This document shows positions 3,730 to 45,757 of a DNA stretch of 64,000 nucleotides, in pieces (within the stretch, counting starts at the first letter, position 1; every line of letters starts with the position of its first letter). The DNA is from a virus (Duplodnaviria > Caudoviricetes). The DNA lies in IMG/VR virus record IMGVR_UViG_3300031994_000057, positions 22,941 to 86,940 of that record; one strand, 5' to 3'. The notes beneath the pieces were generated by a model. The model was not told the origin of the DNA. It did no database searches and saw only the letters and a program-made list of their open reading frames with translations. A program made the position numbers and the translations under genes.

Positions 3730-3910
3730 AAAGAGTGGTGGTGAAGCCAAACCTCGTTCAATTTATTGAACAATATGCTCGCACCCTTAGAGCACTTAAG
3801 CAAATTGCAACAATTTGTCCCCAAAGACAAGAGAACTAACCCCCTTTTGTTTATAAGAGTTACATTATAAAACTAACGTCAAAATGCCCTTCGCTTACCA
3901 CTCTTGCCTT
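3730..3910 (+). ncRNA. candidate structured non-coding RNA (~180 nt)
   Basis: Closing stem 3731-3746 with 3889-3905, several internal hairpins, late-type promoter AACT-N6-TA at 3719-3730, 3' T-tract, no ORF with an RBS. Confidence 0.55.
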
Positions 3911-5143: not shown

Positions 5144-5470
5144 TACAACTATATAATAGAAGCATAGAAGATAGAAATTAGATTAATACCTTCAAAACTT
5201 ATTATTCAATAGAATAAAAGTCATTAAAAGATATTACTATCAGGCACGATAGTCTCGTTAATCTTTTCTTTAAGATATAACGATAAATAAGATGTGATGA
5301 TATAAATGGTTTGGCATTTAATATCATTGTCTTTCATATATCTATGGTAATATATCACTGATATATTATGAAGAATATAATATAGACAATCTATCATTAT
5401 TTAATCTCCTTTCTTAATATTTCTTCTATGCTTCTTATCTATATTATATATTATTGAAATTATATACTTT
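5144..5470 (-). other. inverted-repeat-bracketed small-gene cassette C1
   Basis: Early promoter ~5443-5470 (minus); IR 5422-5435 pairs with 5158-5171; convergent late-type promoter TACA-N6-TA at 5144-5155 (plus). Confidence 0.75.
5224..5397 (-). CDS. cassette C1 small protein (57 aa) MIDCLYYILHNISVIYYHRY...YLSLYLKEKINETIVPDSNIF
   Basis: AAAGGAG RBS; clear paralog of the C2 protein. Confidence 0.75.
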   Translation of the reverse strand: MIDCLYYILHNISVIYYHRYMKDNDIKCQTIYIITSYLSLYLKEKINETIVPDSNIF

Positions 5471-5483
5471 TACCATTATACAA

Positions 5484-5800
5484 TACAACTATATAATAGA
5501 AGCATAAGAGATTAAAGAGTAGAGAATAACCAATAAACTTCGCTTGCTAATTATATATCTACACTGTAACCATTAATTACAGTCCATTAATCTTTTCTTT
5601 AAGATATAATGACAGATAATATAATACAATATAAATTACATAGAATTTAATATTGTTTTTCTTCTTATATTCATTTAAATATATCAGAGATATATTATTG
5701 CTGAGAATATAAAGATAATCAGTCATTGAAATAACTCCTTTCATTTTATTTCTCTTATGCTTCTTATCTATATTATATATTATTGAAATTCCTTACTTTT
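5484..5800 (-). other. inverted-repeat-bracketed small-gene cassette C2
   Basis: Early promoter ~5772-5800 (minus); IR 5751-5764 pairs with 5498-5511; late-type promoter at 5484-5495 (plus). Confidence 0.75.
5577..5726 (-). CDS. cassette C2 small protein (49 aa) MTDYLYILSNNISLIYLNEY...YLSLYLKEKINGL
   Basis: AAAGGAG RBS; shares YLSLYLKEKIN with C1. Confidence 0.75.
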   Translation of the reverse strand: MTDYLYILSNNISLIYLNEYKKKNNIKFYVIYIVLYYLSLYLKEKINGL

Positions 5801-5841
5801 ATATTTTGACATATTAATAAAAATATATAGAAAGTGAGGGA

Positions 5842-6105
5842 ATGATTATGAAAGATGCTTTTCTATTTTTATTCAAATATTTTTGGTTATTCTCCTCATG
5901 TGTTCTAATACTCATAGGAGATATATTATTTATTTTAAGAAGTCTTCAAGATTTCCATGATACCATGAAGATATATAAACAGAATAAGGATAAGGAATAC
6001 TTAAAACAACATCTAGTTGCACCAAAGATTTGTATTGGATGTAATATATTTTTGGCATTAGGTATAAGTAGTTTCTTATACTATGCTAGCATACATATGA
6101 TCTGA
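5842..6105 (+). CDS. small membrane protein (two hydrophobic segments)
   Basis: ORF track; late-type promoter 5808-5819; shares a bidirectional terminator (6115-6141) with the terminase gene. Confidence 0.6.
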   Translation: MIMKDAFLFLFKYFWLFSSCVLILIGDILFILRSLQDFHDTMKIYKQNKDKEYLKQHLVAPKICIGCNIFLALGISSFLYYASIHMI

Positions 6106-6148
6106 TAAAATAATGGACTAGGGATATTATATCCCTAGTCCTTATCTT

Positions 6149-16562: not shown

Positions 16563-17468
16563 ATGGAAATAATACAACCATTTATTACAACAATACCCAA
16601 AGTGGATACTTGGGTTTGTCAACCAGAAGATGTGATATTCTCATCTTCGAAGAATATTATTATTGCTCCTATAAGTGCTAGCTTGAATATATCTTCAGAT
16701 AATCTGGATTATTTTGTAATTAGACCTAAGAAGTGTTATAATAGCCAGGACTTAAGAGACCATCTTTGCCAAGTATTGAATTACTTTGAGAAGTATTTTG
16801 ATACTGATAAGGAATTATTTGTTTATCTAGCAAGAATCAAGTTCATGATAGATAATGTAGAAGGATACGATTACGCAAACTTCATGCATGATATGAGGAC
16901 ATATGTTCTAGGGGAATCTATCAAGAGAAAAGTTGTATTGATGACAGAATATAACTATAAACTTGATTTGACTTACAAGAATATTTCGGAATCATTACAA
17001 TATACTAATGACCATGCTAAGATGCTTTTAGAGATTAGTATATTGATGGATTGTGCTATACCTCTGACAATCCACTTTGCTCATGTGAATAGAATTACTG
17101 AGATAGATGATTTTATCTTGGATGTATATGATATCATATTGCAGAGATTTCCTGCTGCTGATATCTTCTCTAAGTTATATACTACATCTTATAGTAACGT
17201 GTCTAAATCAGAATATAAGAATGCAATTCTATGGGCAAAACAAGATGTAAGAGGTAAAGATGTAGCAACTCATTCATTGGAGTCTGTAAACAATATCATA
17301 TTAAATATTATGCCTAAGTATGCATTTGATAAGAATATAGTCGCATTAAACTATACTTCTGTAATCAAGAATACAAAGTGTCAGATAACAGATATTGAAT
17401 ATGAATATAGTTTCGTGCCATTATCTTCTAGTAAGAGAGATGGTGAAGATGCCACATCTGAATTCGAT
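16563..17468 (+). CDS. exon 1 of a ~500-aa protein, probable sigma-like subunit of the non-virion RNA polymerase
   Basis: Ends TTC GAT at the intron 5' splice site; joins exon 2 in frame (EFD|KYE); lies two genes after the chaperonin, as AR9 gp226 does relative to gp228 (function is inference). Confidence 0.55.
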
Positions 17469-18350
17469 TGACTTATACGAGTCGAATTAAAACTCCTTTA
17501 ACTGCTGGGAACTCTCTAGTAGACAATCAGCAGCCAAGACCCAATCATCAATTTTGTGGAGGGAATTATGATATTACCTACAGAAATTGATTGTATTTAT
17601 AATGAATTTTGGATTTCATTAAACGAAGAAGTAGTGCAGAATATTGAAGATATTTATCTTATAAGTAATTATGGAAGATTATATAATAAAGAAACAAATC
17701 ATTATCTTCCGCAAAATATGAATTATGATAAAGATAAATATATAACAATACGTTTGAGATTAAAAGATCAATCCCATGTATGTAGACAAGTTCATAGACT
17801 AGTATTAGAAAGTTTTGTTCCTATAATTAATTCAGATATGTTTGATGTCAATCATAAAGATGGCATTAAATATCATAATTGGGTATGGAATTTAGAATGG
17901 ACAACACATGATGAAAATATGAAGCATGCTTCGAGAAATAAATTATTTCATTATTGTGAGAATCACCAAAATTCAAAATTGTCTAATGATGAAGTAAGTA
18001 AAATTTGTGAATTAATTATAGAAGGAAAAACACCTGCAGAAATTTCAGATATTATTAATCGACCAGATTGTAATATAAGAAAAATTGTAACTAATATTAA
18101 AGGTGGACATAGTTGGTTAGATATATCACGAAAGTATGGAATCATTGATGATTGAGTAAGGTTCAACGACTATCGAAAGCATAGTATAGAAGAAATATCT
18201 ATATGAAGAAGCGAGTAGAGTAGGGCCTATTTATATAATAGGTGGGTGAGAATCCCTTAAATCGAAATGGGGAGCATTTTAAATATGGTAACAGTATTTA
18301 AGATGAAGATATAGTCTGATCTATATGGCGACATATAGCTAACATAAATG
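17469..18350 (+). ncRNA. group I intron with internal homing endonuclease (882 nt)
   Basis: P1 TTCGAT/GTCGAA with U.G at the splice site; P AACTGCTGGGAA; Q AATCAGCAGCC; R GTTCAACGACTA; S AAGATATAGTCTG; P9 CTATATG-GCGA-CATATAG; terminal G at 18350 restores the frame. Confidence 0.92.
17568..18155 (+). CDS. NUMOD4-HNH homing endonuclease (I-HmuI-like)
   Basis: YLISNYGR (NUMOD4), VHRLVLESF...VNHKDGIK.HN...NLEWTTHDENMKH (HNH); GGAGG RBS inside the intron. Confidence 0.9.
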   Translation: MILPTEIDCIYNEFWISLNEEVVQNIEDIYLISNYGRLYNKETNHYLPQNMNYDKDKYITIRLRLKDQSHVCRQVHRLVLESFVPIINSDMFDVNHKDGIKYHNWVWNLEWTTHDENMKHASRNKLFHYCENHQNSKLSNDEVSKICELIIEGKTPAEISDIINRPDCNIRKIVTNIKGGHSWLDISRKYGIIDD

Positions 18351-23617: not shown

Positions 23618-24724
23618 ATGGAATTTCATATAAATGATAAGGTAAAATTTAAATCAATAAATGAGAATAATGAAATTCGATCTGGTAAAATTACTGAAAT
23701 CATTGATGATAGTTATTTATTTAACAGAAAATTTTATAATATCTGTTCAGAAGGTGAAGTTTATCTAAATATACCTGAAGGGTCCATTATTAGTTATTTT
23801 CCAGTTACAGATTGTATTGAAGATGAATGTGTCGATGCAGTGAAAGAGCAGGAGAGACCTTCCGATAAGTATAAAAATTATAAACGTGGTGATTGTGTTT
23901 ACCTTATAAATGATCCAATGAATGTACACGATCACGTAATTATCACTGCAATTTATTCGGACAATACTATAGGTGTAATTGATTTGCTTGGAAGAGTCTA
24001 TGTATTGGATTTATCGAATACTTTTATAAAACGGAATTTTGGTAATATCATTATTCCTGGGTTTGGCGAAGTAAATGAAACAAGAATACCTGTTTTTGAC
24101 GATTTTAAATATCATTATGGTGATATTGTTACATATACCAGTGGATTAGATAAATATGTTGGAAGAATTGAAAGTGGAATACATATTGAAATAGTCTATA
24201 CAGATTTATATCCATCATCAATTGAATATCAAATTATAAATATAGATAGCTCAATTAATGCATTGAGGAATTATAATGAGATAGAACCTGGTGATTATAG
24301 AATGAAAGAGCAGGAGAATAAAATCACCATGGAAGATATTCGGAACTGTTTCGATGATGACTTTGCCGCAGATGGTGATGATAAGTGTGATGCTGAAGAA
24401 GATTATCGCTGTTCATATCAAGACAAAATTGGATGTCCTGTTGAAATTTTTACAGGTCCATTAGCACCACTTCAATCATTCAAAGATATCTCTGAAATAA
24501 GATTTGATAAACCTGAAATAACTATAGTTTATTCTAATGGCGGAGAGTCTAATGTTGAACTTCCAAAGAATGCATATAATAAGAAAGTAGGTTTTCTCTT
24601 AGCATATCTTAAGGGAATATTAGATGATATAGAATATGCTAGAGTCGCTGGTATTATGGAATCGATCAATAAGGAACCTCAGCAGATTATTGTGAATTTA
24701 GAGACTTATAATGAAGATGATTAG
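23618..24724 (+). CDS. hypothetical protein, tandem paralog 1 (repeated SH3/KOW-like modules)
   Basis: Shares IEPGDYRMKEQE and NGGESN.ELP...YNKKVGFLLAY with the next gene. Confidence 0.7.
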   Translation: MEFHINDKVKFKSINENNEIRSGKITEIIDDSYLFNRKFYNICSEGEVYLNIPEGSIISYFPVTDCIEDECVDAVKEQERPSDKYKNYKRGDCVYLINDPMNVHDHVIITAIYSDNTIGVIDLLGRVYVLDLSNTFIKRNFGNIIIPGFGEVNETRIPVFDDFKYHYGDIVTYTSGLDKYVGRIESGIHIEIVYTDLYPSSIEYQIINIDSSINALRNYNEIEPGDYRMKEQENKITMEDIRNCFDDDFAADGDDKCDAEEDYRCSYQDKIGCPVEIFTGPLAPLQSFKDISEIRFDKPEITIVYSNGGESNVELPKNAYNKKVGFLLAYLKGILDDIEYARVAGIMESINKEPQQIIVNLETYNEDD

Positions 24725-24737
24725 GAGGTATTATATT

Positions 24738-25811
24738 ATGGAATTACAAATAAAAGATAAAGTAAAGTTTAGAAGTGTATCCGAGAACTTAGTAAAGATT
24801 GGTTTGATTAAAAATATTACTCATAAACTTAATAATCCTAATAATAAATATGAGATTCTTGCTGATGACGGAGAATTGTATCTTAATGTATATGAAGATG
24901 ATATAATTAGCTTTCTTGGTTTTGGCCCTTCATATATGACTGATGAATGTAATGATACAGTAGAAGAGTTGACGGCAAACTGTATTGACAAGGCTAAAGT
25001 TGAAGTAGGTGATTGTGTTTATCTTGAGCATAAATCAGATAAAGAAATAAAAGGTGATTTTATCATTACATATATCCTGGGTAATAAAATAGAGTTATTA
25101 TCTTTAACAGGAATACATTATTTTGTTTACAAAGAAAATGTCAAAATCACTGCAAATATAGGTTCTATATTTATTCCTGGAGTAGGATACAGTCATACAG
25201 TATTACTTAATAAAGGTAAAATAGACACAGATACCTTCATGTATAGATTAGGTGATATTGTTACTATTAAAGCCACAAAACGAGTAGGTAAGATTGTTGA
25301 TGCTTATTTCTCTAGAAGTAACGGATGTATAGCATATAAAATTGATTATTTTGATAACAATGAAGATGAGTATATAGTATGGCAACCTTATACTAATATA
25401 GAACCTGGTGATTATAGAATGAAAGAGCAGGAGCAGAAGACTAAATCAGATAAAAATTTTACATATGAATGGGATGAAGAATCAGGACTCTCAGTACATG
25501 GACGCTGTGATAAATGCCCTGCTACGGATATTCTCAATCAAGATTCATTAGCAGGTTTACGTTCTCATGATGATATATGCTCAATAAGTTTTCATAAACC
25601 TTTGGTATCTATATATTATAATAATGGCGGAGAGTCTAATATTGAACTTCCAGAGATTGTATATAATAAGAAAGTAGGTTTTCTCCTGGCATATATTCAA
25701 GGTTTAGTATCAACCAAAGAATATCATAAAGTTATCAGTGTTATGGAATCAATCAACAAAAACCCTCAGCAGGATATTGAATTTGATGAGACTTGTAATG
25801 AAGATGATTAA
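24738..25811 (+). CDS. hypothetical protein, tandem paralog 2
   Basis: Identical RBS/start context GGAGGTATTATATTATGGAATT. Confidence 0.7.
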   Translation: MELQIKDKVKFRSVSENLVKIGLIKNITHKLNNPNNKYEILADDGELYLNVYEDDIISFLGFGPSYMTDECNDTVEELTANCIDKAKVEVGDCVYLEHKSDKEIKGDFIITYILGNKIELLSLTGIHYFVYKENVKITANIGSIFIPGVGYSHTVLLNKGKIDTDTFMYRLGDIVTIKATKRVGKIVDAYFSRSNGCIAYKIDYFDNNEDEYIVWQPYTNIEPGDYRMKEQEQKTKSDKNFTYEWDEESGLSVHGRCDKCPATDILNQDSLAGLRSHDDICSISFHKPLVSIYYNNGGESNIELPEIVYNKKVGFLLAYIQGLVSTKEYHKVISVMESINKNPQQDIEFDETCNEDD

Positions 25812-26081: not shown

Positions 26082-26132
26082 GAAATAGCCAGAGGAGTAT
26101 AATACTCCTCTGGTGTTTTATTTTTTTTTTAT

Positions 26133-26526
26133 AAAAGTTAGATATTTCAATAATATATTATATCTATGAATAAAGTTGAGAAGAAATAATTGTGGAGGCT
26201 ATATGTATGAGAAAGCGACTTAGCTTCATTAAAGATTATTTCGATACTAAATATTGCGAAATCATATATAGACATGATATCCACAATGAGAAATTTATCC
26301 ATAAAATAATTTATTGGATAATCTCAAAAACCATTATTAAATAGCCACCAACTATTTATATTGGTATATCTAGATAATTAATCATCTGATTAATGAGTAT
26401 CATAATAACAATATGTGAAATGGTATAACAATCTTCTCAATAACTTTATTCATATTATTTCATAGTTATTATGATATTAATATCTTAATAGAGAAAGAGG
26501 AGCATAATACTCCTCTTTCTTTTTTT
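26133..26526 (+). other. IR-bracketed small-gene cassette A1
   Basis: Early promoter 26133-26162; IR 26166-26184 pairs with 26432-26453; antisense late-type promoter 26467-26456; terminator 26491-26526. Confidence 0.75.
26207..26344 (+). CDS. cassette A1 small protein (45 aa) MRKRLSFIKDYFDTKYCEIIY...WIISKTIIK
   Basis: GGAGG RBS 8 nt upstream. Confidence 0.65.
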   Translation: MRKRLSFIKDYFDTKYCEIIYRHDIHNEKFIHKIIYWIISKTIIK

Positions 26527-26533
26527 ATAAAAA

Positions 26534-26880
26534 AAAAGTAGATTATTTCCATAATATATTATATCTATGAAAGAAACTAGAATAAATATAAAGAAAGGAA
26601 AATTAATAGATATGAGAAGAATTGTATTTAATCTTAGATCTAAACTTGATGATATTTATATCTCCAGATATTATGAAGATATGATTTCTGATTGTGATAG
26701 GTCTTTCTATTATAATATTTTAAAATACTTATGTATCTTTCTTTATAAGATCGAGCATCTATAATTATCGCAACTAATTATAGATGAGATATCAATCAAG
26801 TTAATATTATATCCCAATTTCTATATATTGACTATATTCTAGTTTCTTTCGTTATCTTAAAGTTAACCTAGTTTTATTTT
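26534..26880 (+). other. IR-bracketed small-gene cassette B1
   Basis: Perfect 16-bp IR 26569-26584 / 26835-26850; antisense late-type promoter 26864-26853. Confidence 0.75.
26612..26764 (+). CDS. cassette B1 small protein (50 aa) MRRIVFNLRSKLDDIYISRYYE...LYKIEHL
   Basis: AGAAAGG RBS; same length and pattern as the B2 protein. Confidence 0.65.
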   Translation: MRRIVFNLRSKLDDIYISRYYEDMISDCDRSFYYNILKYLCIFLYKIEHL

Positions 26881-26885
26881 TTTGT

Positions 26886-27226
26886 AAAAGTTGGTTATTT
26901 CAATAATATATTATAGATATGAAAGAAACTAGAATAAATATGGTACAAAGGAGATGATATAATATGAAGCCTTTGCTTAATAAAGCTAGGTCTATTATAG
27001 ATACTAAATATATTTATATCTTATATGAACTCACACTTCAGAATAAGAATAATAGTATTATCTGTAATATATTATCTATAATTAGTAATGTATTATATAC
27101 ATTAGAGAATTTATAAAATAAATTCATATCTTCATAACTCCATAAGTTAATATAATTCCCAATTTCTATATATTAACTATATTCTAGTTTCTTTCATTAT
27201 CTCAAAGTTAATCATGTTTTATTTTT
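26886..27226 (+). other. IR-bracketed small-gene cassette B2
   Basis: IR 26921-26936 / 27180-27195; antisense late-type promoter 27209-27198; ~80-bp 3' tail nearly identical to B1. Confidence 0.75.
26964..27116 (+). CDS. cassette B2 small protein (50 aa) MKPLLNKARSIIDTKYIYILYE...LYTLENL
   Basis: AAAGGAG RBS. Confidence 0.7.
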   Translation: MKPLLNKARSIIDTKYIYILYELTLQNKNNSIICNILSIISNVLYTLENL

Positions 27227-27228
27227 GT

Positions 27229-27633
27229 AAAAGTAGATTATTTCAATTATATATTATAGATATGAATAAAGCCATGAAGAAATAAATTCATGGAGGATAT
27301 TTAGAATGATTGATAAGATTAAGAATTCAATTATTCAATATTTAAGAGGCAAGATATATTATTTTGTACTATTTAAATATCATCCACGAAGAGACAAAAG
27401 CCCAGAGCATTGAGCTCTGGGTATTGTCCAAAATTCTTAAATAGTCTCACCACTATTAAGAATAAATCTGTAATAAGTTAAATTTCCTCACAAGAATTTA
27501 ACGAGTATCACAATACAATATGTAAAGTAATAATCAAATCTTCATTACAGCTTTATTCATATTACTTTATAGTTATTGTGGTATTAATATCTTAGCAAAG
27601 AAAGAGGAGCACATACTTCTCTTTCTTTTTTTT
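27229..27633 (+). other. IR-bracketed small-gene cassette A2
   Basis: IR 27262-27280 / 27539-27560; antisense late-type promoter 27574-27563; 3' tail and terminator nearly identical to A1. Confidence 0.75.
27306..27444 (+). pseudogene. cassette A2 small protein, apparently frameshifted by 1 nt
   Basis: 35-aa ORF stops at 27413; the +1 frame gives IHEETKAQSIELWVLSKILK, matching A1 IHNEKF...YWIISKTIIK; removing one base gives 45 aa, like A1. Confidence 0.55.
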
Positions 27634-27725
27634 ACGTAGGGTCTATAGATTGAGTCTTAACTTTATTATAATATGTATATTTAGTAAAAATTTATATATA
27701 ATAATTCTAAAAGGAGGATTATACT

Positions 27726-28523
27726 ATGTCATATATTACACCCGGTACAGACGGCAAATGGTATCCTGAAAAGGAACCTGTAATCCCTCGTGTATATCAT
27801 GAACATCTCTCAGAAGAGCAACTTTTAAATTTATACAGCCCTACTGAGATCCAATCTTTATATAACAAAGCGTACTTTGTATCTAATCCTAATGCATTTC
27901 CTGCTAACGGATATCTTGGAGCAAAGTGCGAATATGTAGACAAATGTCAGAGCGGAGCTCGCCTTAAACCTGGTTCAAAGACAACTAATCAGGTTATTAA
28001 GTCTATGAGAATTAGAAACCTTGGTACAGCGAAAGCATGGGTTAGATTATTCATTGCTATCCCTTCAATTCTTGATGATGCTCAGCCCGATTTCGATGCT
28101 TCCAAGAATGTACTTCATTTCAATACAGATTCTGCTAAGGGTCTTGCTGAAGGACAGTGGAACTATGGTAAGGCTATGGATAGAGCAGCTGGCGCATATG
28201 TTGGACCTTCTGGTTGGAACTTTTATGCTACAACTATCAAGGGTATCGCTTACAATGTATATGTAGCTACACTTGAGACAGCTCTTATGCCTGGACAGCT
28301 TTCATCTGAAGCAGTATTCCAGGTATATCTTGATGCTAAGTGCTCTGAAGATGATATCATTAAGATCAATAAGACATTCGGAACAGATAAGTGGCAGATG
28401 TATGCTGCAGCTGAAGCTGTTGCTGCTGAAGGTATTGATGAAGATGATACAGAAGATGCATTCACAGCATTCGCTAAGATTTATGAAGAAGTAGGCGAAG
28501 GAAAGCATAATCCTTTTGCTTAA
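27726..28523 (+). CDS. protein with a phage N-terminal motif fused to a camelysin/SipW-substrate-like beta-sandwich domain
   Basis: RIRNLGTAKAWVRLFIA...FQVYLD...AAAEAVAAEG pattern; PVIPRVYHEHL shared with 33417-33689. Confidence 0.5.
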   Translation: MSYITPGTDGKWYPEKEPVIPRVYHEHLSEEQLLNLYSPTEIQSLYNKAYFVSNPNAFPANGYLGAKCEYVDKCQSGARLKPGSKTTNQVIKSMRIRNLGTAKAWVRLFIAIPSILDDAQPDFDASKNVLHFNTDSAKGLAEGQWNYGKAMDRAAGAYVGPSGWNFYATTIKGIAYNVYVATLETALMPGQLSSEAVFQVYLDAKCSEDDIIKINKTFGTDKWQMYAAAEAVAAEGIDEDDTEDAFTAFAKIYEEVGEGKHNPFA

Positions 28524-43990: not shown

Positions 43991-45757
43991 ATGTCTTATC
44001 TTGATACAATTATAGAAGAATTTATTAAAGAATCTTCTGTAGATATATTATCAGCGATAGATAATTTTAACTATGCTGTTAATAATTCACCTGAAATAAT
44101 AGAAGAAGCAGAATATACTAAGAAAGTAGAACATTTAAAACTTGAATTATTAGACATTGATAGATTTATAAAAGTAAATGATTGTAAAGCTATAGATAAT
44201 CCTGTATTTTATAGCAGAGATAATATACCTACACCTGATGGATTATTATCTAATGAGATATTTGGTATAACACAAGCAGATAGAGCAGGTATATTTGCTT
44301 ATATAAATCTTAATCAATGGTTTATAGATCCTTCATGCTATAAATGTTGGTCTAAAATTGATCCTAAAGTTAAAGATATTGTTCATAAGAACGGAACTTT
44401 CTCGATAGACAGTAATGGCTATATAGTAGAAGATCCTGTAGGTAAGAATGGTGTTAAATTCTTAAAGGATAATATTGATAAGATTAAATTCAAGACATCT
44501 GATTCTATGAAGAGAGACTTGAGAATTAATTATCTTGAGTTAAATAGAAAGAAGATGTTTATAAATAAATATATCGTTATACCACCTTATTATAGAGATA
44601 CTAATACTGGTAAACGTTCTGTCGGTGTAGGTGGCATAAATAAGATATATTCACAGTTGATTATAGCAGTTAATTCACTTAAGACTACACAAGATTATGG
44701 ATTCGATTTAAGTGGTCCTATGGAAGGTAGAGTACAAGAAGTAATAGTTGCTATATATGATTGGTTAGCAGGTAATACTAATAGCCTTATTCAGACAGAT
44801 GAAGGTGTAGGTATATCTGGTAAGACTGGTTTATTAAGAAGAGCTGCTTTAAGTAAGACTACTAATTATGCAGCTAGACTAGTTATTTCAGCTCCTGATG
44901 TAAGAACTAATAGACCAGAAGATTTAATGGTTAATTATGACTTCTCTGCTATTCCTTTACATGCTGCTTTAGCATGCTATAGACCATTTGTACAGTTTTA
45001 TGTAAGAAAGTTCTTTGAAAGTGAATTCATAGGAACAGAAACTTATCCTGTAAGACAGAAAGATGGAAGTATAGTTTATATTACTCCTAATAATCCTTTA
45101 ATAGAGTTTAGCGATGAAGTTATAGTAAAAGAAATGGAAAGATTCATCCATTCTAAGAATAATAGATTAAGACCTATTATTCTTCATGATACAGAAGGTA
45201 AAGAATACTTTATGAATTTTAGAGGAAACTTTACTAATGATAAACTTGAAGGTGAAGGAATTTATGAAAGAAGACTCACATGGTGTGATGTATTCTATGT
45301 AGCTGCTTGCAGAGCAGTAAAAAATAAAATGGCTATTATTACAAGATATCCTGTAGATACCAAGTTTAACAGTATCGTAACTGGTTTAGTTATATCTTCT
45401 ACAACTAATACCGAACCTATGTATTATAATAATGAATTCTTCAAATACTATCCTAAGATTAGAGAAGAAGATATAGGAAAAGGTACAGAGAATAAGTTTA
45501 TCGATACTATGAGACTTTGTAATATATTCCTTCCTGGTATGGTTGGAGATTATGATGGTGATACAGTTACTGTTAAAGGTGTTTATACGGATGAAGCTAA
45601 TGAAGAATTAAGAAAGTTTGCTAATAATAAGATGAACTTTACTAATACAGAAGCATCATCTACAAGAACATCAGCAGGACAAGTAGCACAATCGTTATAT
45701 AACCTAACTTTAATACTTAATTCTGATAAGGAAAAATTAAAACCTGTTGAATTATAA
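43991..45757 (+). CDS. multisubunit RNA polymerase beta-prime-like subunit (catalytic fragment; probably virion RNAP)
   Basis: PTPDGLLSNEIFG, VIPPYYRD, YAARLVIS, TRYP, GDYDGD; N-terminal acidic extension. Confidence 0.85.
   Translation: MSYLDTIIEEFIKESSVDILSAIDNFNYAVNNSPEIIEEAEYTKKVEHLKLELLDIDRFIKVNDCKAIDNPVFYSRDNIPTPDGLLSNEIFGITQADRAGIFAYINLNQWFIDPSCYKCWSKIDPKVKDIVHKNGTFSIDSNGYIVEDPVGKNGVKFLKDNIDKIKFKTSDSMKRDLRINYLELNRKKMFINKYIVIPPYYRDTNTGKRSVGVGGINKIYSQLIIAVNSLKTTQDYGFDLSGPMEGRVQEVIVAIYDWLAGNTNSLIQTDEGVGISGKTGLLRRAALSKTTNYAARLVISAPDVRTNRPEDLMVNYDFSAIPLHAALACYRPFVQFYVRKFFESEFIGTETYPVRQKDGSIVYITPNNPLIEFSDEVIVKEMERFIHSKNNRLRPIILHDTEGKEYFMNFRGNFTNDKLEGEGIYERRLTWCDVFYVAACRAVKNKMAIITRYPVDTKFNSIVTGLVISSTTNTEPMYYNNEFFKYYPKIREEDIGKGTENKFIDTMRLCNIFLPGMVGDYDGDTVTVKGVYTDEANEELRKFANNKMNFTNTEASSTRTSAGQVAQSLYNLTLILNSDKEKLKPVEL

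Follow-up and report, generated by a model that had tools for sequence, protein, structure and literature searches.

We propose that the small cassettes repeated in the genome of a rumen jumbo phage carry a functional late promoter at their 3′ ends, directed against the cassette, whose antisense transcript would shut off the early message; we put the probability of this reading at roughly 0.55. The motif AAC[AT]-N6-TA is found opposite every one of the eight cassettes in the 87-kb record, with its predicted start 0-5 nt beyond the 3′ arm, and this placement is real and statistically sound. That the cassette motif represents a late-type promoter is well supported by internal sequence evidence, and from this we reasonably infer that the promoter would fire, that it would do so late in infection and that it would silence the early peptide.

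The window analysed here, a stretch of 64,000 nucleotides, comprises positions 22941-86940 of an 86.9-kb viral contig, which is by estimate about 35% complete and derives from an uncultured rumen phage of jumbo type related to Bacillus phage AR9. The samples of origin are sheep and cattle gut, and the window is AT-rich (about 30% G+C). Among its genes are those for a large terminase, for tail proteins and for a GroEL-like chaperonin, together with one for an RNA polymerase subunit that is split in the manner of jumbo phages. The nearest relatives of this RNA polymerase subunit, at 28-34% identity, are found in Listeria phage LPJP1, Bacillus phages BpSp and Goe21 and Staphylococcus phage S6, and by sequence they place the phage in the AR9/PBS1 group. 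In AR9 the sigma-like subunit gp226 gives the non-virion RNA polymerase its promoter specificity (PMC5312081; PMC9209446), and a putative homologue is encoded in the window:

16563 to 17471, plus strand: homologue of gp226, the promoter-specificity subunit of the AR9 non-virion RNA polymerase, with an early promoter 5′ of it.

This ORF matches PDB 7S01 chain A with E = 2.2e-9 across residues 47-298, and AR9 gp226 by tblastn with 59 bits. An early promoter stands 5′ of the gp226 gene in AR9, as it does here.

Eight cassettes are present in the 87-kb record, six in the window (W1-W4, C1 and C2) and two upstream of it (G1 and G2), and by their arms they fall into three families: type A (W1, W4, G1, G2), type B (W2, W3) and type C (C1, C2). 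Those in the window are as follows, with terminators given as hairpin predictions and sense starts as predicted under the AR9 rule.

26133 to 26530, plus strand: W1 (type A); sense +1 at G 26168, 5′ arm 26168-26184, 45-aa ORF 26207-26344, 3′ arm 26432-26451, terminator 26490-26522.
26534 to 26884, plus strand: W2 (type B); sense +1 at G 26569, 50-aa ORF 26612-26764, 3′ arm 26835-26850, then a T-run.
26886 to 27228, plus strand: W3 (type B); sense +1 at G 26921, 50-aa ORF 26964-27116, 3′ arm 27180-27195.
27229 to 27636, plus strand: W4 (type A); sense +1 at G 27264, frameshifted ORF 27306-27444, 3′ arm 27540-27558, terminator 27597-27628.
5147 to 5479, minus strand: C1 (type C); early promoter 5479-5439, sense +1 at about 5436, 57-aa ORF 5397-5224, 3′ arm at about 5158-5171.
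5487 to 5808, minus strand: C2 (type C); early promoter 5808-5768, sense +1 at about 5765, 49-aa ORF 5726-5577, 3′ arm at about 5498-5511.

The 5′ start of the cassette reads AAAGT-N-TATTTCAAT[AT]ATATATTAT-N6-G. The form CAAT[AT]ATATATTAT-N6-G, found 5′ of W1-W4, G1 and G2, agrees with the AR9 early promoter as defined by experiment, AAATATATATTAT-N6-G(+1) (PMC5312081; PMC9209446), and C1 and C2 have ATATATAAT-N6-A instead. The likeness extends to single AR9 promoters, for example that of g001, which the cassette promoters resemble nearly base for base. An earlier note on this DNA had assigned the two strands of the cassette to two polymerases, virion and non-virion, and both this match to the AR9 early consensus and the encoded gp226 homologue support that premise.

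The initial 14-18 nt of each early RNA recur in inverted form 255-285 nt downstream, forming the arms, whose sequence is specific to the family and changes in concert at both ends. In predicted RNA folds the two ends of the message come together (W1, z = -7.8; W2, z = -5.3), with nt 1-17 paired with the 3′ arm in the W1 fold. Because the type A and type B peptides align, the families are best regarded as paralogues; the earlier description of three unrelated arm families thus stands for the arm sequences, which do differ, but not for the cassettes as a whole. No known RNA or protein family in Rfam or Pfam is matched by the cassettes. We also considered the arms as the ends of a mobile element and rejected this reading, as there is no recombinase nearby and the changes in copy number involve whole units between tandem repeats.

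The sites found on the strand opposite the cassettes are listed below.

26456 to 26467, minus strand: W1 site, AACT-ATGAAA-TA then ATATG; predicted +1 at 26456, 5 nt outside the arm.
26853 to 26864, minus strand: W2 site, AACT-TTAAGA-TA; predicted +1 at 26853, 3 nt outside the arm.
27198 to 27209, minus strand: W3 site, AACT-TTGAGA-TA; predicted +1 at 27198, 3 nt outside the arm.
27563 to 27574, minus strand: W4 site, AACT-ATAAAG-TA then ATATG; predicted +1 at 27563.
5144 to 5158, plus strand: C1 candidates, TACA-ACTATA-TA (+1 at 5155) overlapping AACT-ATATAA-TA (+1 at 5158).
5484 to 5498, plus strand: C2 candidates, TACA-ACTATA-TA (+1 at 5495) or AACT-ATATAA-TA (+1 at 5498).
Upstream of the window: G1 site, AACA-ATGAAA-TA.
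Upstream of the window: G2 site, AACA-CAATAG-TA.

AAC, at positions -11 to -9, is invariant in all eight cassette sites, and position -8 carries T in W1-W4, C1 and C2 and A in G1 and G2. The 6-nt spacer followed by T(-1) and A/G(+1) is found in 8/8 cassettes as well as in cassettes of the related contigs L142, L143 (at 8858) and L170, and the motif is usually extended to TAAT(ATG). All six starts named by the earlier note (26456, 26853, 27198 and 27563 on the minus strand, 5155 and 5495 on the plus strand) coincide with the A of the motif TA. The C1 and C2 sites are weak and two registers are possible; the TACA sites ending at 5155 and 5495 are present as had been claimed, but the AACT register 3 nt further on fits the consensus better. 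Nor is the distance to the arm the constant of about 3 nt that had been proposed: type A sites start 5 nt outside it, type B sites 3 nt, and type C sites either 0 or 3 nt.

The significance of this placement was assessed against intergenic DNA outside the cassette arrays, where the background rate per position and strand is 0.0016 for AAC[AT]-N6-TA and 0.0048 for the NAC[AT] form. The chance that all three independent arm families have a match in a window of 6-7 nt is p ~1e-6 (2-4e-5 for the NAC[AT] form), and about 1e-4 if the first arm family serves only to frame the hypothesis.

The same motif appears to serve as a gene promoter elsewhere in this phage. In AR9 the late promoters read AACA-N6-TA/G, the last base being the start, and the leaders are mostly 20-40 nt long (PMC5312081; PMC9209446). 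In the present contig 13 start codons have AAC[AT]-N6-TA at a distance of 15-40 nt upstream, against 5 sites in that window for a 5-nt spacer and 3 for a 7-nt spacer, and against 5 motif sites in total when all upstream regions, taken as 80 nt each, are read on the opposite strand; the genes behind the 13 sites include the large terminase and several in the structural region. The two phages differ at position -8, which here is split about equally between A and T, at the gene-proximal sites too, whereas AACT is rare in AR9 and confined to a few promoters; that half the sites have T in place of the AR9-canonical A counts against the proposed reading. A weight matrix trained on 19 gene-proximal sites, with the cassettes excluded, was used to score about 174,000 positions on both strands, and it revealed additional preferences for T-rich sequence after AAC[AT] and for A-T, often ATATG, after the start. 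Its top score goes to a promoter just beyond the W array:

27659 to 27670, plus strand: reference late promoter, AACT-TTATTA-TA then ATATG, 56 nt upstream of a 265-aa gene.

This promoter, AACTTTATTATAATATG with +1 at 27670, is kept as AACTTTA[AT]TATAATATG in contigs L161, L162 and L170 and, with a slight change, as AACTTTTTAATAATATT in L143, and the DNA upstream of it is entirely different. The type A cassette sites rank 7 (G2), 8 (G1), 11 (W1) and 16 (W4) of the roughly 174,000 positions and make up 4 of the 5 top-scoring matches outside the training set. The type B and C sites follow at 51 (W3), 56 (W2), 62 (C1, AACT register) and 111 (C2), with the TACA register of C1 falling outside the top 120. 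By these ranks the type A sites resemble strong late promoters, the type B sites average ones and the type C sites weak ones. The earlier identification of the motif as a late-type promoter therefore holds up well, as the motif lies at promoter distance upstream of late genes and the cassette sites score like the best gene-proximal sites.

Comparison between copies indicates which parts of the 3′ end are retained. When the 3′ regions of the four type A copies are aligned, CTTTATTCATATTA and GTTA stay constant and the intervening 6-7 nt vary, such that the spacer is altered at 5/6 positions and AAC and TA are unaltered; the arm end and ATATTA are fixed, and the sequence beyond GTTA is variable. 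Between families the flanks are unalignable and the arm distance shifts, with the internal 6-nt spacing constant. Type B is conserved more broadly, the entire 55-nt 3′ block being near-identical in W2, W3 and the L170 copy, set against 32% amino-acid identity between the W2 and W3 ORFs; because this whole block is conserved, conservation alone does not single out a promoter.

In related contigs the W4 ortholog of L142 is 98% identical, with an intact 45-aa frame and the identical antisense motif. The W3 ortholog of L170, the sole cassette of that strain, has an unchanged arm and motif, and its 3′ UTR just upstream of them differs at many positions. In L143, where the 265-aa gene product is 72% identical to the phage's own, a diverged cassette at another genomic site (8858) has new arms and AACT-TTAAAA-TA then ATATG; a further cassette of that contig, at 5640-5920, has AACT with a 7-nt spacer and is without an early promoter. 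Copy number in the array varies between strains as 0, 1, 3 or 4, with four copies here and one in L170; W1 is absent in one public run, and contigs with relatives of the 265-aa gene are mostly without cassettes at this site.

Searches further afield did not extend this set. In IMG/VR the 14-nt arm pattern gave random matches only and the 265-aa neighbour had no relative, and a search with the W3 peptide returned as its sole match a 92%-identical near-copy; the aligned peptides proved too divergent to locate further loci. Early-promoter matches in five other jumbo-phage records were not accompanied by arm cassettes. Such cassettes are absent from a relative whose complete genome, of 256 kb, contains some 40 early promoters of this type. 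In this relative, the 1,500 nt past 32 early starts contain 14 antisense late motifs against 20 expected, and 36 in the sense direction; with no antisense excess there, the convergent site is tied to the cassettes and not to early units generally.

The predicted sense and antisense RNAs would have 10-18 nt in common at their 5′ ends, roughly the near-identical starts of about 15 nt that the earlier note had anticipated. There is no conserved antisense ORF across the cassettes and no co-oriented gene downstream of the W or G sites, and therefore RNA is the only plausible product there. Only the C sites face a gene, an 85-aa ORF at 5848-6105 on the plus strand, and the predicted plus-strand transcript of C2 would run into it. 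Among the cassettes, clear antisense terminator-like hairpins accompany W1 and W4 only:

26089 to 26113, minus strand: terminator-like hairpin with a T-rich tail, a possible end of the W1 antisense RNA.
27401 to 27421, minus strand: GC-rich hairpin then CTTTTGTCTC, seen on the minus strand only, a candidate terminator of the W4 antisense RNA.

The first of these hairpins doubles, on the plus strand, as the terminator of the gene upstream. The second would lie about 140 nt into the predicted W4 antisense RNA and is kept in L142; its reading as an antisense terminator is tentative, because other type A copies have an internal hairpin at the same place. A contig from an RNA library in Logan, which is unstranded, covers W4 (27272-27550), and since neighbouring genes are covered to a similar depth this contig may represent DNA carry-over. 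Two contigs of the same RNA sample begin at 27707.

Several other explanations of the 3′ module have to be weighed against an antisense late promoter with a shut-off role. The module could act on the sense strand, where UA-N6-AGUU and a U-run would form an element for stability, processing or termination of the early mRNA and the likeness to a late promoter would be coincidental. That the type B 3′ block is conserved in one piece, with arm, motif and T-run all included, is consistent with this, as is a small post-arm hairpin possible in type A, whose G-U pairs form only on the sense strand; types B and C, being without a classical hairpin terminator, would moreover need some other 3′-end signal. 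We nevertheless consider such an element unlikely, as in most copies the post-arm hairpins are no stabler than shuffles (z -0.4 to +0.2) and no structure is common to types B and C. The only feature common to all three families is AAC[AT] and TA at a fixed 6-nt spacing with the TAAT extension, and this extension is also seen at gene-proximal promoters. Late promoters may also be real and serve another purpose, supplying leaders of late mRNAs, late small RNAs acting elsewhere or barriers that keep late read-through out of adjacent units. Plus-strand RNAs from 5158 and 5498 would indeed reach the 85-aa gene and a terminator at 6115-6141, the minus-strand hairpin and T-run of W4 would yield a discrete RNA of about 165 nt, and an antisense promoter of phage LUZ19 has been proposed as a read-through block (PMC10914365). 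This we judge rather unlikely, given that the W and G sites have no co-oriented gene downstream and that a role as leader or barrier leaves the tight link to the 3′ arm in 8/8 copies unexplained.

Simple inheritance would require no function at all: an ancestral cassette would have borne the motif by chance, and recent duplication with gene conversion of the ends would have kept it. The cassettes are tandem paralogues that vary in copy number between strains, and their ends are much more alike than their ORFs, as gene conversion would predict. Yet AAC, the 6-nt spacing and TA persist between unalignable flanks and at differing arm distances, the type A spacer has changed around an unchanged AAC and TA, and the chance of retention in two additional, diverged families is about 1e-4, all of which make unselected inheritance quite improbable.

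An antisense late promoter with a shut-off role would operate as follows. Early in infection the virion polymerase would transcribe the cassette from its AR9-type early promoter, and the resulting mRNA would fold closed through its 5′ and 3′ arms. The 3′ module, consisting of the 3′ arm, a short gap and AAC[AT]-N6-TA on the opposite strand, would be a genuine late promoter read by the phage non-virion RNA polymerase with its gp226-like specificity subunit. As this polymerase builds up it would start 0-5 nt outside the 3′ arm and produce a non-coding RNA complementary to the entire early message, with an overlap of about 290 nt, which may end at the upstream hairpins or continue through adjacent cassettes. 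Pairing of sense and antisense RNA, possibly together with collision of the polymerases, would then bring expression of the early peptide to an end. A broader proposal, which we hold possible though on balance doubtful, is that the cassette is a self-contained timing device, of which the injected virion polymerase would transcribe one strand early and the newly made polymerase the opposite strand late. Both RNAs would have the same leader and each would be capable of forming a panhandle, such that short-lived early effectors could be gained, lost or exchanged as plug-in units (related strains have 0 to 4 copies at one site), each with its own off-switch.

The closest precedent is AR9 itself, which has the same bipartite late motif, the same type of early promoter and the specificity subunit to which the homologue here is similar. 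The AR9 non-virion polymerase reads its motif on the template strand and needs deoxyuridine there at -11 and -10 (PMC9209446). Seven late antisense starts have been mapped in AR9. The strongest of these (75478) is located 77 nt beyond the stop codon of g090 and converges on g087-g090, a run that begins at an early promoter and includes a gene for a non-virion polymerase subunit (PMC5312081; PMC9209446). The AR9 starts were mapped experimentally, whereas those proposed here are predicted from sequence, and the candidate antisense promoter in the present phage is fixed in a repeated cassette, at 0-5 nt from the point where the mRNA leader recurs in inverted form. No arm was found when the AR9 start at 75478 was checked for one.

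In Firmicutes, type I toxin-antitoxin systems combine a small peptide gene with a convergent cis-antisense promoter at or beyond its 3′ end, and hok mRNA is known for its 5′-3′ fold-back. The cassettes resemble these systems in having a small peptide gene, a predicted convergent antisense promoter and mRNA ends predicted to pair. They differ in that their promoters would serve two phage polymerases with different timing and not host sigma-A, and in that the predicted overlap spans the full length of the mRNA, with no match in Rfam. The cassette peptides differ too: their top 19-residue Kyte-Doolittle means are 0.29-1.41, none reaching 1.6, and charged residues break up most of them, so they are not membrane-toxin-like. 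The variant of the earlier note in which the antisense RNA acts as an antitoxin is accordingly weak, no cassette peptide having a hydrophobic stretch that resembles a membrane helix.

Other phages offer further precedents. LUZ19 and other Phikmvvirus phages have a conserved antisense phage-specific promoter in the early region, which in LUZ19 was proposed to block read-through into early genes, and both PAK_P3 and phiKZ produce antisense RNAs (PMC10914365). The LUZ19 arrangement is similar to ours in directing a promoter for the phage's own middle/late polymerase against early genes and in being kept in relatives, but it comprises one such promoter per genome, is served by a single-subunit polymerase and involves no cassette, arms or repetition.

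If the promoters do fire, shut-off of the early peptides would be tied to the polymerase switch itself, with no dedicated repressor, in a portable unit of about 350 bp. The predicted antisense starts are precise to the nucleotide and are therefore easy to test given RNA or polymerase. Furthermore, this model would account for the conservation of the cassette ends against diverging ORFs, and it would explain what purpose is served by the late antisense starts of AR9, for which mapping came with no explanation. Finally, if true, it would make available a small genetic part with two promoters for timing expression in AR9-like phages.

The array of tandem early-gene cassettes (window 26127-27640, + strand) varies in copy number by strain, with four units in the window, a single one in the related contig L170 and none in several relatives, in which the array site is empty of cassettes (L161 was among the contigs compared). 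In the public sequencing run X4 the first cassette, W1, is missing through the clean deletion of one unit. The reading frame of the fourth cassette, W4 (27306-27444, +), is disrupted by a 1-nt difference from its 98%-identical ortholog in the related contig L142 (8-445), where the frame is intact and codes for a 45-aa type A peptide. The copy in the window could be a pseudogene, or the 1-nt difference could stem from an assembly error. Also present in the window is a tandem pair of paralogous genes (23618-25811, +), encoding 368 aa and 366 aa, which have long direct repeats in common at 76-90% identity, their ribosome-binding regions included.

Two genes of the window concern the transcription machinery:

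16563-17471, +, homologue of gp226, the specificity subunit of the AR9 non-virion polymerase, with an early promoter in front
43991-45757, +, split RNA polymerase subunit gene

The gp226 homologue is 302 aa long, versus 464-465 aa in AR9, and the portion of AR9 gp226 that it contains is the N-terminal part, the reader of the -10-like element. The product of the split gene gave no match to the solved chains of the AR9 non-virion polymerase at E <=1e-5, and an early promoter is absent in front of it; together these two absences are consistent with a subunit of the virion polymerase.

The gene behind the reference late promoter is the following:

27726-28523, +, 265-aa late protein gene

Many bacterial relatives of its product carry PF12389 (camelysin / SipW-dependent signal-peptide proteins), a family that is unusual for a phage late gene. 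In two RNA runs made from a single sample, the contigs share position 27707 (+) as their first base, which is 19 nt 5' of the start codon and 37 nt 3' of position 27670, where the late RNA is predicted to start. This shared end could reflect either a limit of the assembly or RNA processing at that site. Elsewhere, a predicted late-type promoter at 3730 (+), which scores highly with the weight matrix (rank 20), is directed into a gene-free stretch with terminators on both sides.

In the complete 256-kb relative G002 (loci L148-L160), late-type motifs on the sense strand 3' of early promoters are enriched, with 36 found against about 20 expected. This excess fits 'continuous' genes of the AR9 style that bear both promoter types.
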